Shown one piece after another: positions 20,360 through 28,867 of a stretch of DNA of 64,000 bases (position 1 is the stretch's first letter; each line of letters starts with the position of its first letter). The notes beneath the pieces are model-generated. The model ran no database searches, had not been told where the DNA came from, and saw only the letters and a program-made list of their open reading frames with translations. The position numbers and the translations under genes are program-made. The stretch is from contig CAZFIM010000001.1 of NCBI GenBank assembly GCA_964519615.1, positions 37,065-101,064 of the forward strand, written 5' to 3'. The DNA is from an uncultured Dehalococcoidales bacterium (GTDB taxonomy: Bacteria > Chloroflexota > Dehalococcoidia > GIF9 > UBA5629).

Positions 20360-21394
20360 ATGAAAGCGGTTGAATGGCTGGGTAACAGCATACGCATTAT
20401 AGACCAGACCTTGCTTCCGGCAGCGCTTAAAACTCTTGATATCAGGGATTGGTGTGAGATGGTGGGCGCTATCAAAGAGCTCAAGGTACGCGGTGCTCCT
20501 GCTATCGGGGTGGCCGCCGCTTACGGGATTGCGCTGGGCGCACAAAATATCACAGCCGCAAGCGAGTATGCTTTTTTAAAAAAACTGGAGGCGATCATGG
20601 ATACGTTCGCCGCCTCCAGGCCGACAGCGGTAAACCTGTTCCGTTCTATTGACCGCATGAAGCAGCGCATAAAGCAGGTAGAGGGAAAAGAAGCGATTAT
20701 ACAAGCCTTAATCGCAGAGGCCCACAGCATTCACACCGGGGAGATAGAGTCCACAGAGCGGTTATCGTATCACGGAGCGGAGCTGATCAGGGACGGTTTT
20801 ACTATTTTAACCCACTGCAACGCCGGCCCGCTGGCCACAGCGGGCTACGGTACCGCACTGGGCGTAATCATAGCCGCACACAAGCAGGGCAAGAATATTC
20901 GAGTCTTAGCCGATGAGACGCGCCCTCTTTTGCAGGGAGCGCGCCTGACGGTCTGGGAACTTATGCAAGAGCATGTTCCGGTAACTCTTATTACTGATTC
21001 AATGGCAGGCTATTTTATCAACCGCGGCAAAGTGAACTGCGTTATCACAGGCGCTGACAGGATTACCACCGGAGGCGATACAGCCAATAAAATAGGCACC
21101 TATACACTGGCGGTACTGGCCAAAGAAAACGGCATTCCTTTCTACATAGCAGCCCCTGCCAGCACCATAGACCCTGCACTGCGGCTGGGAGGGGATATCC
21201 CCATTGAAGAGAGAAACCCCGAAGAAGTAACCATGCTGGCCGGCGTACGCATCGCTCCCTCAGAAGCACAAGCTGCCAACCCCGCTTTCGATGTTACGCC
21301 GTCGCGCTACATTACTGGTATAATCACTGAGCGGGGGGTTATAGGTCCGCCTTATGACCATACGCTGCCTGCACTATTGAAGGAGGTACGATAA
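20360..21394 (+). CDS. mtnA: S-methyl-5-thioribose-1-phosphate isomerase (eIF-2B family)
   Basis: HCNAGPLATAGYGTALGVI and the family length (344 aa) fit MtnA rather than ribose-1,5-bisphosphate isomerase. Confidence 0.75.
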   Translation: MKAVEWLGNSIRIIDQTLLPAALKTLDIRDWCEMVGAIKELKVRGAPAIGVAAAYGIALGAQNITAASEYAFLKKLEAIMDTFAASRPTAVNLFRSIDRMKQRIKQVEGKEAIIQALIAEAHSIHTGEIESTERLSYHGAELIRDGFTILTHCNAGPLATAGYGTALGVIIAAHKQGKNIRVLADETRPLLQGARLTVWELMQEHVPVTLITDSMAGYFINRGKVNCVITGADRITTGGDTANKIGTYTLAVLAKENGIPFYIAAPASTIDPALRLGGDIPIEERNPEEVTMLAGVRIAPSEAQAANPAFDVTPSRYITGIITERGVIGPPYDHTLPALLKEVR

Positions 21395-22257
21395 TGTCAC
21401 ATGCTACCATCGGTGTCATCGGCGGCTCGGGGCTTTACGAGATAGAAGGAATGACCGGCATCGAGGAAATAACGATTAAAACTCCCTTCGGTGACCCAAG
21501 CGATACCATCAAGGTAGGAGAACTGGAAGGAGTAAAGGTTGCCTTCCTGCCGCGCCATGGGCGCGGACACCGCATCAGCCCCACCAAACTGCCGGTCAGA
21601 GCCAATATTTACGCCCTTAAAACACTGGGAGTCGAGAGGCTTATCTCAATAGCAGCGGTAGGCAGCCTGAAAGAGGAAATCGCTCCTCTCAATGCGGTAC
21701 TGCCGGACCAGATTATCGACCGTACCAGCAGAACAGCCAATACCTTCTTCGATGACAATATCGTGGCGCACGTTGCCTTCGCCGAGCCTTTCTGCCCGAT
21801 AATGTCCCAGGTACTGTGGCAGACAGCAGTCGATTCAGGTATTACAATACATAAAGGCGGTACATACCTGGCAATGGAGGGCCCGCAATTCTCTACCAGA
21901 GCGGAGTCCAATCTCTACCGCTCATGGGGCGCTGCCGTGATCGGCATGACCGCCATACCGGAGGCTAAGCTGGCCCGTGAAGCCGAGATTTGTTATGCCA
22001 CACTTGCTTTCGTAACCGATTACGATTGCTGGAATGAAGACCATGAGACCGTTTCCACGGAGATGATAATAGATAATCTCAAGCAAAATGTTAATGCAGC
22101 CGGAGAGATAATAAAAAAGGCGGTAAGCCGGATGCCGGATACCAGGGACTGCGGCTGCGCCACTGCGCTGGCAAATACCATTGTCACCGATCCCGCACGC
22201 ATTCCTGCAAAGGTAAAAAAAGACCTGGCGCCATTGATCGGCAAGTATATTAAATAA
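21394..22257 (+). CDS. mtnP: 5'-methylthioadenosine phosphorylase
   Basis: IGVIGGSGLY, PNP/MTAP fold, 287 aa. ATGA overlap with mtnA. Confidence 0.85.
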   Translation: MSHATIGVIGGSGLYEIEGMTGIEEITIKTPFGDPSDTIKVGELEGVKVAFLPRHGRGHRISPTKLPVRANIYALKTLGVERLISIAAVGSLKEEIAPLNAVLPDQIIDRTSRTANTFFDDNIVAHVAFAEPFCPIMSQVLWQTAVDSGITIHKGGTYLAMEGPQFSTRAESNLYRSWGAAVIGMTAIPEAKLAREAEICYATLAFVTDYDCWNEDHETVSTEMIIDNLKQNVNAAGEIIKKAVSRMPDTRDCGCATALANTIVTDPARIPAKVKKDLAPLIGKYIK

Positions 22258-22265
22258 GGAGCGTA

Positions 22266-26380: not shown

Positions 26381-27634
26381 ATGAAATACGATGTTAAAGA
26401 TATAAAAATGGCTGCCGAAGGCAAGCTTCGCATTGAATGGGCCGGCAGAGAGATGCCGGTTATACAACTCATCAAGGAGAGGTTCTCTAAAGAGCAGCCC
26501 CTTAAAGGAATCAGGATCGCCGGGTGCCTCCACATCACCACCGAGACCGCCAATCTGGGCATAGCACTGAAAGCCGCGGGCGCAGAGCTGGTGCTGTGCG
26601 CATCCAACCCTTTGAGCACTCAGGACGATGTGGCCGCGGCACTGGTGGAGCTCGGTATTCCTACTTTCGCCATTAAAGGCGAAGATAATCAGACCTACTA
26701 TAAGCATATCCTCTCCGCTCTGGACTATGCGCCGCAGCTCACTGTGGACGACGGCGCAGATCTGGTAAGCACTATTCACCAGGAGAAGAAAGCGCTCATC
26801 GGCGATATTATCGGCGGTACTGAAGAGACCACTACGGGAGTTATACGGCTCAGAAATATGGCCAGAGACGGCAAGCTGAGCTATCCTATTATCGCTGTCA
26901 ATGACGCAAAAACAAAACATTTCTTCGATAACCGCTACGGCACAGGGCAGAGCACCCTGGACGGCATCACGAGGGCAACTAATGTACTCTGGGCCGGCAA
27001 GAATGTGGTAGTATGCGGTTACGGCTGGTGCAGCAAAGGCATTGCCATGAGGGCTCAGGGAATGGGCTCTCATGTTATCGTGACCGAGGTGCAACCTATA
27101 CCGGCCCTGGAAGCGGCAATGGACGGCTTCCGCGTCATGCCTCTGGTTGAGGCGGCGCGCATAGGAGATGTCTTCATTTCCGCTACCGGCGATACGCATG
27201 TGCTCGATGAAGCACATTTTAAACAGATGAAGGACGGCGCAATTGTTGCCAACAGCGGTCATTTTAACGTGGAAATCAATATCCCGGCTCTGGAAAAGAT
27301 GGCACAGTCCAAACGCACCATCAGGGCCTCTGTAGAAGAATACCTGCTTAAAGACGGGCGCAGGATTTTCCTGCTGGGCGAGGGCAGACTTATCAACCTG
27401 GCCGCTGCCGAAGGCCATCCGGCCAGCGTGATGGATATGAGCTTTGCCAATCAGGCACTCTGTCTGGAGCACCTGTATAAGTCAAAAGGCAAACTCAAAC
27501 CGGATGTCTACGCAGTACCACAAGAAATCGATGATGAAGTGGGTATGTTAAAACTACAGGCCATGAATATAAAAATCGATTCCCTTTCAGATGAACAAAG
27601 AAAATATTTAAACAGCTGGGAATCAGGTACATAA
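26381..27634 (+). CDS. ahcY: adenosylhomocysteinase
   Basis: Full-length SAH hydrolase match including the NAD-binding GYGWCSKG motif. Confidence 0.9.
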
Positions 27635-27655
27635 CACTGAGTGAAGGAGAAATTA

Positions 27656-28867
27656 ATGCCCAATAGCTTTAAGAAAAATAGCTCTCATTTTTTTGCTTCC
27701 GAATCTGTTACAGAGGGACATCCCGATAAGCTCTGCGACCAGATATCGGACGGCATTCTGGATGCGATACTGGCCGATGATCCGACTGCCCGTGTTGCCT
27801 GTGAAGTAGCGGTTACCAAGGGGCTGGTGGTTGTGCTGGGGGAAATAACCACCGATTGCTATGTGGAGGTCCCTGAGGTTGTCCAGCGGGTTGTTAAAGA
27901 GGCGGGATATACAGATCCTGCTTTTGGTTTCGATTATAAAAGCTGCGGCATACTGGAATGCATCAAGCCGCAGTCAAAGGATATCTCGGCAGGCGTAAGC
28001 AAAGCAGCCGAAATACGCAACGCCGCCGGTGCGGAGGATGATCTGGATAAGACCGGAGCGGGAGACCAGGGAATGATGTTCGGATATGCCTGTACGGAGA
28101 CACCGGAGCTCATGCCTCTGCCCATCGCTTTAGCGCATAAGCTCTGCCGTGAGCTTGCCCGGCTGAGAAAAGAGAAGGTACTGCCCTATCTGCGCCCGGA
28201 CGGCAAATCACAGGTAACCGTTGAATACTGTCACGGAAAACCCAAACGGGTGGACGGAGTAGTGATAGGCGCACACCACAGTCCTGATGTCGATAACACA
28301 ACTATCAGACGCGACATGATAGAGAAACTGATTAAGTCTGTTATACCGGCAGACCTGCTGGATGAGAAAACGAAATATGTGGTCAATGGTGCAGGCAGAT
28401 TTGAAATCGGCGGTCCCATTTCGGATACCGGCTTTACCGGCCGCAAGATACTGGTTGACACATACGGCGGGACCGCTCATCACGGTGGCGGCGCCTTTTC
28501 CGGCAAGGACCCGACCAAGGTAGACCGCTCGGCAAGCTATATGGGCCGCTATATCGCTAAAAATCTGGTGGCTGCGGGGCTGGCTGATTATTTGGAGGTA
28601 CAGGTATCGTATGCTATCGGAGTAGCACATCCTATGTCTCTCTCCGTCGAGACCTTCGGATCAGGAGTGATTCCTGATGAAGCCATAGTTTCCATCATCA
28701 ATAAGCATTTCGACCTGAGGCCTGAGGCTATCATACGGCACCTGGACCTGCGCCGCCCCATTTACCACCAGGCAGCCGCCTACGGCCACTTCGGCAGGAC
28801 CGATATAGATTTGCCATGGGAGAAGCTGGATAAGGTGGATGTAATTAAAAAAGAGGCCGGACTCTGA
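27656..28867 (+). CDS. metK: S-adenosylmethionine synthetase
   Basis: [17 protein letters not shown] and [15 protein letters not shown] then ATG at 27656. Confidence 0.9.

Follow-up and report, generated by a model that had tools for sequence, protein, structure and literature searches.

A MesB-type (core-MetE) methionine synthase gene within a conserved SAM-cycle gene block of Dehalococcoidia

The window is the whole stretch of DNA that was analysed, 64,000 nucleotides from an uncultured Dehalococcoidales bacterium. It carries methionine-salvage and SAM-cycle genes around a gene for a short MetE-like protein:

19871..20359, plus strand: 162-aa ORF with hydrophobic N-terminal segments, abutting the mtnA start; no family match
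20360..21394, plus strand: mtnA, S-methyl-5-thioribose-1-phosphate isomerase (TIGR00512 equivalog, NF004326, PF01008)
21394..22257, plus strand: mtnP, S-methyl-5'-thioadenosine phosphorylase (TIGR01694 equivalog); 1-nt overlap with the mtnA stop
22266..23294, plus strand: mesB (core-metE), 342-aa single-barrel zinc-dependent homocysteine methyltransferase, methylcorrinoid-dependent by homology
23392..23763, plus strand: 123-aa Lys/Ala-rich low-complexity ORF, its stop overlapping the NTPase start
23763..24320, plus strand: THEP1-type NTPase (PF03266, NF010248)
24283..24801, plus strand: archaemetzincin-family zinc metalloprotease (NF033823, PF07998); 38-nt overlap with the NTPase gene
24833..26377, plus strand: 514-aa fusion of an APH-like phosphotransferase and an AAA_33 P-loop kinase (PF13671, PF01636)
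26381..27634, plus strand: ahcY, S-adenosylhomocysteine hydrolase (TIGR00936)
27641..28867, plus strand: metK, methionine adenosyltransferase (SAM synthetase) (TIGR01034)
28969..30393, plus strand: phosphohexomutase (PGM)
30390..31454, plus strand: bacterial-type phosphoglucose isomerase (PGI)

The initial annotation had placed mtnA, mtnP, the 342-aa MetE-like gene, ahcY and metK on one strand within 20360-28867, and all five were confirmed there. Four of the products passed curated NCBIfam equivalog cut-offs: MtnA (TIGR00512, 427 bits, cut-off 279; also NF004326, 447 bits, and PF01008, E=1e-89), MtnP (TIGR01694, 317 bits, cut-off 275), AhcY (TIGR00936, 641 bits, cut-off 498), and MetK (TIGR01034, 556 bits, cut-off 309). 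Four ORFs absent from the initial annotation separate mesB from ahcY. These encode the Lys/Ala-rich protein, the NTPase (PF03266, E=1e-45; NF010248, 162 bits, cut-off 156), the archaemetzincin (NF033823, 178 bits, cut-off 145, plus the PF07998 match), and the APH/AAA_33 fusion (PF13671, E=3.5e-30; PF01636, E=1.3e-5).

The conserved block is also longer than first described, starting at the 19871 ORF and often running into PGM and PGI (28969-31454), which probably stand functionally outside the SAM cycle. The 162-aa ORF had no matches in Pfam and NCBIfam searches, and at least 10 related loci have a homologue (34-43% identity) immediately before mtnA; it is likely the first gene of the block. 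Intergenic spacing across the block ranges from -38 to +97 nt. The block may comprise more than one transcription unit, because a 97-nt gap separates mesB from the 123-aa ORF and a promoter-like site (23317-23345, 10/12 match) lies in between.

Members of the MesB family have been recognized by phmmer score against DET0516/cbdbA481, with thresholds of 130 bits in a proteome screen and 173 bits in phylogenetic profiling; DET0516 of strain 195 and cbdbA481 of strain CBDB1 share 99% identity (PMC7857596). A Dehalococcoides mccartyi cbdbA481-type locus (L082) was recovered from metagenomes with the published cbdbA481 forward cloning primer. The published reverse primer matches this locus with one mismatch, and its 343-aa protein carries H215, C217, D236, and C312, identical to the published cbdbA481 residues (PMC7005905). 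A second primer match (L081) was an unrelated membrane protein and was discarded. The 342-aa protein scores 357 bits against the L082 protein, with 47% identity over 338 residues and no gaps. The proposed kinship to the Dehalococcoides short MetE, a type that uses methylcob(III)alamin and not methyl-THF (PMC7005905), is therefore borne out, and the 342-aa protein is a member of the MesB/core-MetE family and a clear relative of the methylcobalamin-using enzyme. Pfam returned no family match for it even at E<=10, apart from an irrelevant one of 11.8 bits, and PF01717 and PF08267 were unmatched. A PDB sequence search returned no chains, 3RPD included, and the best NCBIfam score was 24 bits to NF002119 (archaeal short methionine synthase; cut-off 258). 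These three libraries lack MesB coverage.

Canonical MetE has two barrels in about 750 aa and matches PF01717 plus PF08267 or TIGR01371, whereas MesB consists of one catalytic barrel (about 340 aa) and lacks the N-terminal MetE domain. The 342-aa protein is of the second kind. Its AlphaFold model is one barrel (pLDDT 95.5, pTM 0.93), in agreement with the earlier view that only the MetE C-terminal type is present and the N-terminal half is missing. In Foldseek, the top 27 PDB matches were all MetE or MesD (E 5e-10 to 3e-6, TM 0.54-0.65). The model aligns over its full length to single-barrel MesD (3RPD; TM 0.61 by either length) and spans only roughly half of each full-length MetE chain (TM about 0.3 when normalised to the target). 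URO-D structures came next, after those 27 (E 1.7e-5 to 1.7e-4, TM 0.51-0.56, 10-11% identity). A URO-D/MtaA assignment was rejected, as this family ranks below MetE/MesD by fold and gave no URO-D Pfam match. A better fit to URO-D or MtaA without the MetE zinc ligands had been raised as a possible objection; this objection fails, because the fold is MetE-type, the zinc and homocysteine residues are retained, and a close Dehalococcoides relative exists.

The predicted zinc ligands are H216, C218, D237, and C313, so that the H-x-C...C pattern noticed initially is real. S16 (in IIGSMPH) and D179 (in FIDEP) are the predicted homocysteine contacts. By motif comparison these positions match S433, D599, H641/C643, E665, and C726 of E. 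coli MetE, giving the His-Cys-(Asp/Glu)-Cys zinc set and the Ser and Asp equivalents found in MesB. Among 348 family members, the zinc positions hold His in 348, Cys in 345, Asp in 347, and Cys in 342; Ser is found at position 16 in 312 (Thr in 23) and Asp at position 179 in 344. The residue assignment is based on the gapless cbdbA481-type alignment and the motifs and not on the profile alignment, since hhalign against E. coli MetE was weak (probability 2.6%) and one residue out of register at H-x-C. Q123 occupies the position of cbdbA481 His122, the proposed lower axial ligand for cobalamin, so this published detail does not transfer to the present protein. Gln is found at this position in 86% of relatives. 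On a speculative reading, the "base-off/His-on" model would hold for only part of the family, and a partner protein would deliver the corrinoid.

Gene order was compared with the best 80 related Dehalococcoidia loci, all from MAGs closer than D. mccartyi, and neighbors were counted only in loci with enough flank. Directly next to mesB lies mtnP in 55 of 65 loci, and mtnA is upstream in 34 of 43. Downstream are ahcY (28 of 41), metK (24 of 41), the THEP1-type NTPase gene (18 of 41), and PGM (15 of 41). A homologue of the 123-aa ORF was detected only in L010 (41% identity), and many relatives have a gap of 400-550 nt at its position. The APH/AAA_33 kinase-like gene lies between mesB and ahcY in 25 of 41 loci and also in L082; its two parts form one gene in 11 loci and separate genes in 24. 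An APH/AAA_33(+PHP) module occupies the mesB-ahcY slot in 35 loci, versus a PfkB gene in nine and both together in none. At the D. mccartyi-type locus the order is mtnA-mtnP-mesB-APH/AAA-ahcY-metK, and mtnA-mtnP-mesB-(kinase)-ahcY-metK recurs there and across the 80 loci. The clustering is not due to chance. The characterised core-MetE was originally found through linkage to metK and ahcY, and the present locus is the counterpart of the one where it was discovered; the idea is not new. We consider it roughly 85% probable that the window contains a conserved SAM-cycle block, in its Dehalococcoidia form, with a MesB-type methionine synthase at its center.

Co-localisation could instead be a syntenic legacy, with mtnA-mtnP-mesB and the downstream genes forming separate units whose coupling is merely housekeeping. 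The gap and promoter-like site after mesB fit this explanation, as do the inserted genes that vary among relatives (thiolase, DUF35, GNAT, PHP, PfkB) and the sugar-metabolism genes PGM and PGI that are carried along. However, core adjacency is kept as MesB identity drops to 46-66%, and every conserved member works on SAM or on one of its precursors or by-products. We regard this explanation as unlikely.

A SAM (activated methyl) cycle consists of MetK, AhcY, and a methionine synthase, and all of these are encoded in the SAM-cycle block. In the proposed cycle, S16 and D179 of the single (beta/alpha)8 barrel of MesB would bind homocysteine, and zinc held by H216, C218, D237, and C313 would activate its thiol. 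The thiolate would take the methyl group from a methyl-Co(III) corrinoid, yielding methionine and Co(I), and MetK would convert methionine to SAM. After methyl transfer, AhcY would split SAH into adenosine and homocysteine, which would return to MesB. MtnP and MtnA would clear MTA, the other SAM by-product, and possibly also 5'-deoxyadenosine, releasing adenine and making a ribulose-1-phosphate derivative. The initial annotation also placed MTA recycling here. This holds for the first two steps, MtnP and MtnA; complete MTA-to-methionine salvage is not encoded in the window, as none of the later steps (MtnB/C/D/E, RLP or aldolase shunts) was found among the window ORFs scanned.

The methyl donor is the part of the scheme that was drawn from the literature. 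Methylcob(III)alamin is the only methyl donor with which the D. mccartyi orthologue shows activity (kcat about 60 per s); methyl-THF-Glu3 gives none, and the orthologue cannot replace MetE in an E. coli delta-metE strain (PMC7005905). By analogy, we infer that the 342-aa protein uses a methylcorrinoid rather than methyl-THF. The KM of the orthologue for free methylcobalamin is about 240 uM (PMC7005905), far above plausible cellular levels, which argues for a protein-bound donor. [quoted passage not shown] AcsC or AcsD occurs in all 123 of 123 MesB-containing reference proteomes (PMC7857596), and labelling in D. mccartyi, as cited in the same paper, traced the methyl group of methionine back to that of acetate.

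The same enzyme and chemistry could operate with a donor other than CoFeSP, either another corrinoid protein, which could for example be fed by a substrate-specific methyltransferase, or a free methylcobamide. The 64-kb window holds no AcsB/C/D, B12-binding protein, or MetH/MetE-like sequence, and an Rfam scan of the whole window gave no matches at gathering score, and thus no cobalamin or SAM riboswitch. Because the window offers no corrinoid carrier, MetH, MetE, or riboswitch, the donor is assigned by inference. Among 81 related loci, ORF clustering with 20 annotated ORFs (10 representatives of recurrent neighbor families and 10 mesB-flanking ORFs in L007, L009, L016, and L078) revealed no recurrent corrinoid or Wood-Ljungdahl neighbors, acsCD included. 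Certain MesB paralogues might have a different corrinoid protein as their partner (Price et al., PMC7857596), and the orthologue does work in vitro with free methylcobalamin (PMC7005905). Against this stand the high KM, the AcsC or AcsD found in every MesB-containing proteome, and the labelling result as cited, and we consider a non-CoFeSP donor quite unlikely. Tblastn of the 81 loci with E. coli MetH gave no matches. In at least one Dehalococcoidia MAG (L078), a split MetE is encoded next to the MesB homologue, so not every member of the class relies on MesB alone.

A MesB-like paralogue serving another function, for example as a zinc methyltransferase for a different thiol or as a homologue without catalysis, as in Chloroflexales, would agree with the empty Pfam and PDB sequence searches, and Chloroflexi MesB-like proteins with another function have been described (Price et al., PMC7857596). 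It is nevertheless highly improbable here, as the zinc set has been lost in the non-enzymatic homologues (FSHG, YCDQ, or YREQ), whereas the full HCDC set with S16 and D179 is present, the score to the characterised type is 357 bits, and the position near ahcY and metK is orthologous. A minimal, folate-dependent MetE able to use methyl-THF even though the N-terminal barrel is missing would share the MetE-like fold and zinc site, but is barely credible given that the 47%-identical orthologue is inactive with 5-methyl-THF-Glu3 and fails to complement delta-metE E. coli, that Dehalococcoidia genomes are reported to lack metF (PMC7005905), and that PF01717 and PF08267 are unmatched.

Family membership, catalytic residues, fold, and conserved synteny were established directly. 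The MesB-centered locus is one more case from an uncultured lineage of folate-independent, corrinoid-dependent methionine synthesis, the corrinoid part by homology. [quoted passage not shown] The locus raises no new question, because the enzyme family, the in vitro chemistry, and the metK/ahcY linkage are already published. Beyond the two key papers are the membership of mtnA and mtnP in the conserved block, the alternation of the kinase-like module and the PfkB kinase in one slot, and the lack of conservation of the proposed His122 ligand. The mutual exclusion in the mesB-ahcY slot is the basis for suggesting that the APH/AAA_33(+PHP) module may stand in, by non-orthologous replacement, for a PfkB-type nucleoside (adenosine) kinase and recycle adenosine from the AhcY reaction. 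Alternatively, one of the block ATPases may service the corrinoid donor. Taken jointly, the mtnP-mesB adjacency and the uncharacterised block genes could point to unassigned functions in a folate-free SAM cycle, together with His-on binding that is not general; we regard this joint reading as a long shot.

Among known systems, D. mccartyi MesB (cbdbA481/DET0516; Deobald et al. 2020, PMC7005905; Price et al. 2021, PMC7857596) is the counterpart in length (343 versus 342 aa, gapless, 47% identity), in the His-Cys-Asp-Cys zinc set shifted by one residue, in the Ser and Asp contacts, and in its mtnA-mtnP-mesB-APH/AAA-ahcY-metK context. It differs in having His122, the proposed "His-on" ligand, in place of Gln123, and its locus lacks the three genes (Lys-rich ORF, NTPase, archaemetzincin) that separate mesB from the kinase-like gene in the window. 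Tandem-repeat MetE (E. coli b3829; T. maritima 1XPG; C. albicans 4L6H) shares the catalytic barrel fold and equivalent GS(F/M)P, IDEP, H-x-C, and (D/S)CGL motifs. In contrast, the 342-aa protein lacks the N-terminal barrel, has Asp in place of the Glu665 zinc ligand, and is only 14-16% identical, and its orthologue does not use methyl-THF. MesA (NF002119/PRK00957) and MesD (3RPD) likewise belong to the core methionine synthases, with one barrel and a zinc site. MesA uses methylcobalamin in vitro, but the 342-aa protein reaches only 24 bits to the MesA model (cut-off 258); MesD is oxygen- and MesX-dependent and is found in aerobes. MtaA-type enzymes move a methyl group from a corrinoid to a zinc-activated thiol. 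The URO-D/MtaA type shares a distantly related TIM-barrel fold with the 342-aa protein, but its fold match is weaker and it has no family match by sequence.

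The genes of the SAM cycle and of methylthioadenosine (MTA) processing form one block in the window. The initial annotation had placed mtnA, mtnP, a short MetE gene, ahcY and metK in a single orientation, and ORF calling agrees on these genes, their extent and their strand. Four intervening ORFs had been omitted, and the block is slightly wider than claimed. Nine ORFs, all on the plus strand, lie within 20360-28867:

20360-21394, +, mtnA (above the NCBIfam equivalog cut-off; Pfam agrees)
21394-22257, +, mtnP (above the NCBIfam equivalog cut-off; Pfam agrees)
22266-23294, +, short MetE-like protein, 342 aa (mesB)
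23392-23763, +, putative Lys/Ala-rich low-complexity protein, 123 aa, directly 5' of the NTPase gene
23763-24320, +, THEP1-type NTPase
24283-24801, +, archaemetzincin protease, overlapping the NTPase gene by 38 nt
24833-26377, +, APH + AAA_33 kinase-like fusion, 514 aa
26381-27634, +, ahcY (above the NCBIfam equivalog cut-off; Pfam agrees)
27641-28867, +, metK (above the NCBIfam equivalog cut-off; Pfam agrees)

THEP1-type NTPases and archaemetzincins belong to families that are mostly archaeal. Family searches returned no match for the 123-aa ORF. The same holds for an ORF of 162 aa (19871-20359) that abuts the mtnA start codon and whose product has hydrophobic stretches near its N terminus; at least 10 related loci carry a homologue of it 5' of mtnA. 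Genes for PGM and then PGI follow metK. Intergenic spacing in the block ranges from -38 to +97 nt, and the widest gap, 3' of the short MetE gene, contains a sigma-70-like promoter match (10/12, 23317-23345) upstream of the 123-aa ORF.

Divergent from the block is a gene (18174-19595, minus strand) for a 473-aa protein that combines a hydrophobic segment at the N terminus with two redoxin domains of the thioredoxin/AhpC-TSA type. A molybdopterin oxidoreductase large subunit with a 4Fe-4S dicluster partner is encoded at both 14510-18006 and 34214-37370; the first has a pyrogallol-hydroxytransferase-like N-terminal domain, and the second lies beside a TRAP transporter (37468-40503), where GC is 0.42-0.44 compared with about 0.51. 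The 42-61 kb region carries rpoA, secY, adk, map, fusA and truA, with ORFs of ribosomal-protein-gene size between them. GC falls to 0.38 in the final 2 kb. ORFs of 436, 593, 183 and 273 aa (1044-2354, 10610-12391, 61689-63195) had no Pfam or NCBIfam match.

Conservation of gene order was assessed in a genome scan; the 80 loci it listed belong without exception to MAGs of Dehalococcoidia or other Chloroflexota, and MesB identity ranges from 46 to 66%. Counting only listed loci with enough flanking sequence, mtnP adjoins mesB in 55 of 65, the most tightly kept adjacency of the block, and mtnA lies upstream in 34 of 43. Downstream of mesB, 41 such loci could be compared: ahcY is present in 28, an APH/AAA gene in 25, metK in 24, the NTPase gene in 18, PGM in 15 and the archaemetzincin gene in 10. 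Because of these adjacency counts, the SAM-cycle block is a conserved feature of the class Dehalococcoidia and not a coincidence. Judged from its nearest relatives, the window belongs to a Dehalococcoidia-like Chloroflexota genome. No corrinoid gene recurs as a neighbor in the related loci, as judged from 20 annotated ORFs that include representatives of ten recurrent neighbor families. Neither Deobald et al. (PMC7005905) nor Price et al. (PMC7857596) mentions mtnA, mtnP or salvage, and a full-text literature search combining Dehalococcoidia with methylthioadenosine found nothing relevant. In one Dehalococcoidia MAG (locus L078, JACVQK010000011, 11257-13199, minus strand), two tandem MetE-like halves, one matching PF01717 at E=1e-84, adjoin the MesB homologue; we read this as a split MetE beside MesB, and therefore some Dehalococcoidia have two kinds of short methionine synthase.

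The slot between mesB and ahcY is occupied by an APH module (with or without AAA_33 and PHP) in 35 loci and by a PfkB-type kinase in nine, and no locus has both. APH and AAA_33 are fused in 11 loci and separate genes in 24, and a phosphatase-like gene with a PHP domain often comes next; the module also occurs in the D. mccartyi-type locus. The best match of the PfkB protein is a nucleoside kinase, below threshold. Speculatively, the two could serve the same step in different ways, and that step may be the recycling of adenosine.

Searches with the 342-aa protein gave no match in Pfam or among PDB sequences, and its best NCBIfam score was 24 bits, to an archaeal short methionine synthase model with a cut-off of 258. 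Homologues comprised 4704 clusters (90% identity) at E<=1e-3 and 423 clusters (50% identity) at E<=1e-30; the named clusters are methionine synthases, and those with an organism stated are Chloroflexota. The MetE-type zinc-ligand pattern proposed earlier is present as H216, C218, D237 and C313. An alignment of 46 sequences shows no variation at H216 and D237 and conservation of 90% or more at S16, D179, C218 and C313; among 348 family members H216 is kept in 348, D237 in 347, C218 in 345, D179 in 344, C313 in 342 and S16 in 312. The motifs IIGSMPH, FIDEP, IHCCG, SFDAY and TPSCGL correspond to E. coli MetE TIGSFPQ (S433), IQIDEPA (D599), THMCY (H641/C643), TIETS (E665) and NPDCGL (C726). Unlike E. 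coli MetE, the protein has Asp at the Glu665 position, which is the MesB signature (Price et al., PMC7857596). The 27 best PDB fold matches of its AlphaFold model (pLDDT 95.5, pTM 0.93) are exclusively cobalamin-independent methionine synthases or MesD (3RPD), another single-barrel methionine synthase. A URO-D or MtaA identity, the alternative raised with the initial annotation, is dismissed because URO-D structures rank below all 27, with weaker scores.

Judging from cbdbA481 of D. mccartyi CBDB1, the orthologue that has been assayed, the MesB protein of the window most likely transfers a methyl group from a methyl-Co(III) corrinoid to zinc-activated homocysteine. MetK and AhcY would close the SAM cycle, and MtnP and MtnA would dispose of MTA. 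The MTA recycling proposed earlier holds as far as these two enzymes; no salvage enzyme acting after them appears among the window ORFs scanned, so only these first two steps of salvage are supported. The orthologue is active with methylcob(III)alamin only (kcat about 60 per s), is inactive with methyl-THF-Glu3 and does not complement E. coli delta-metE (PMC7005905). With free methylcobalamin it has a high KM of about 240 uM (PMC7005905), and acetate labelling in D. mccartyi indicates that the methionine methyl group derives from that of acetate (cited in PMC7857596, PMC7005905); a corrinoid protein is therefore indicated as donor. The proposed donor is the corrinoid iron-sulfur protein CoFeSP (AcsCD), and AcsC or AcsD occurs in all 123 MesB-containing proteomes of Price et al. 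(PMC7857596). Within the 64-kb window there are no Acs genes, B12-binding protein or MetH/MetE-like sequence, and no riboswitch at gathering score.

Deobald et al. (PMC7005905) proposed His122, in an HxxG motif described as common to all Dehalococcoidia, as the lower axial cobalamin ligand ("His-on"). The aligned residue in the window protein is Gln123 (22632-22634), and of 348 relatives, 299 have Gln at this position and 44 have His. Judged from the alignment, this published binding model is not general, because Gln dominates across the family. Gln would fit a partner-presented donor better than a His-on cobalamin site.

The characterized core-MetE cbdbA481 (343 aa; zinc ligands H215, C217, D236 and C312) was discovered through its operon with SAM synthetase (cbdbA476) and SAH hydrolase (cbdbA477) (Deobald et al., PMC7005905). 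Its forward cloning primer (PMC7005905 supplement), searched against metagenome contigs, identified a D. mccartyi-type locus (L082) on a 465-kb contig, where the reverse primer matches with one mismatch. The 343-aa protein encoded there has H, C, D and C precisely at 215, 217, 236 and 312, and the window protein is 47% identical to it over 338 gapless residues (332 BLAST bits, 357 phmmer bits). Price et al. (PMC7857596) defined MesB by two features, the zinc ligands and a score of at least 130 or 173 bits to DET0516, the strain 195 counterpart, which shares 99% identity with the CBDB1 enzyme; the window protein has the ligands, and its score to the L082 protein exceeds both values. Gene order in L082 is mtnA-mtnP-mesB-APH/AAA-ahcY-metK, and the window differs only in adding the Lys-rich ORF, the NTPase and the archaemetzincin. 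The initial observation and its interpretation were essentially right, and the window locus is orthologous to that of a system characterized before.
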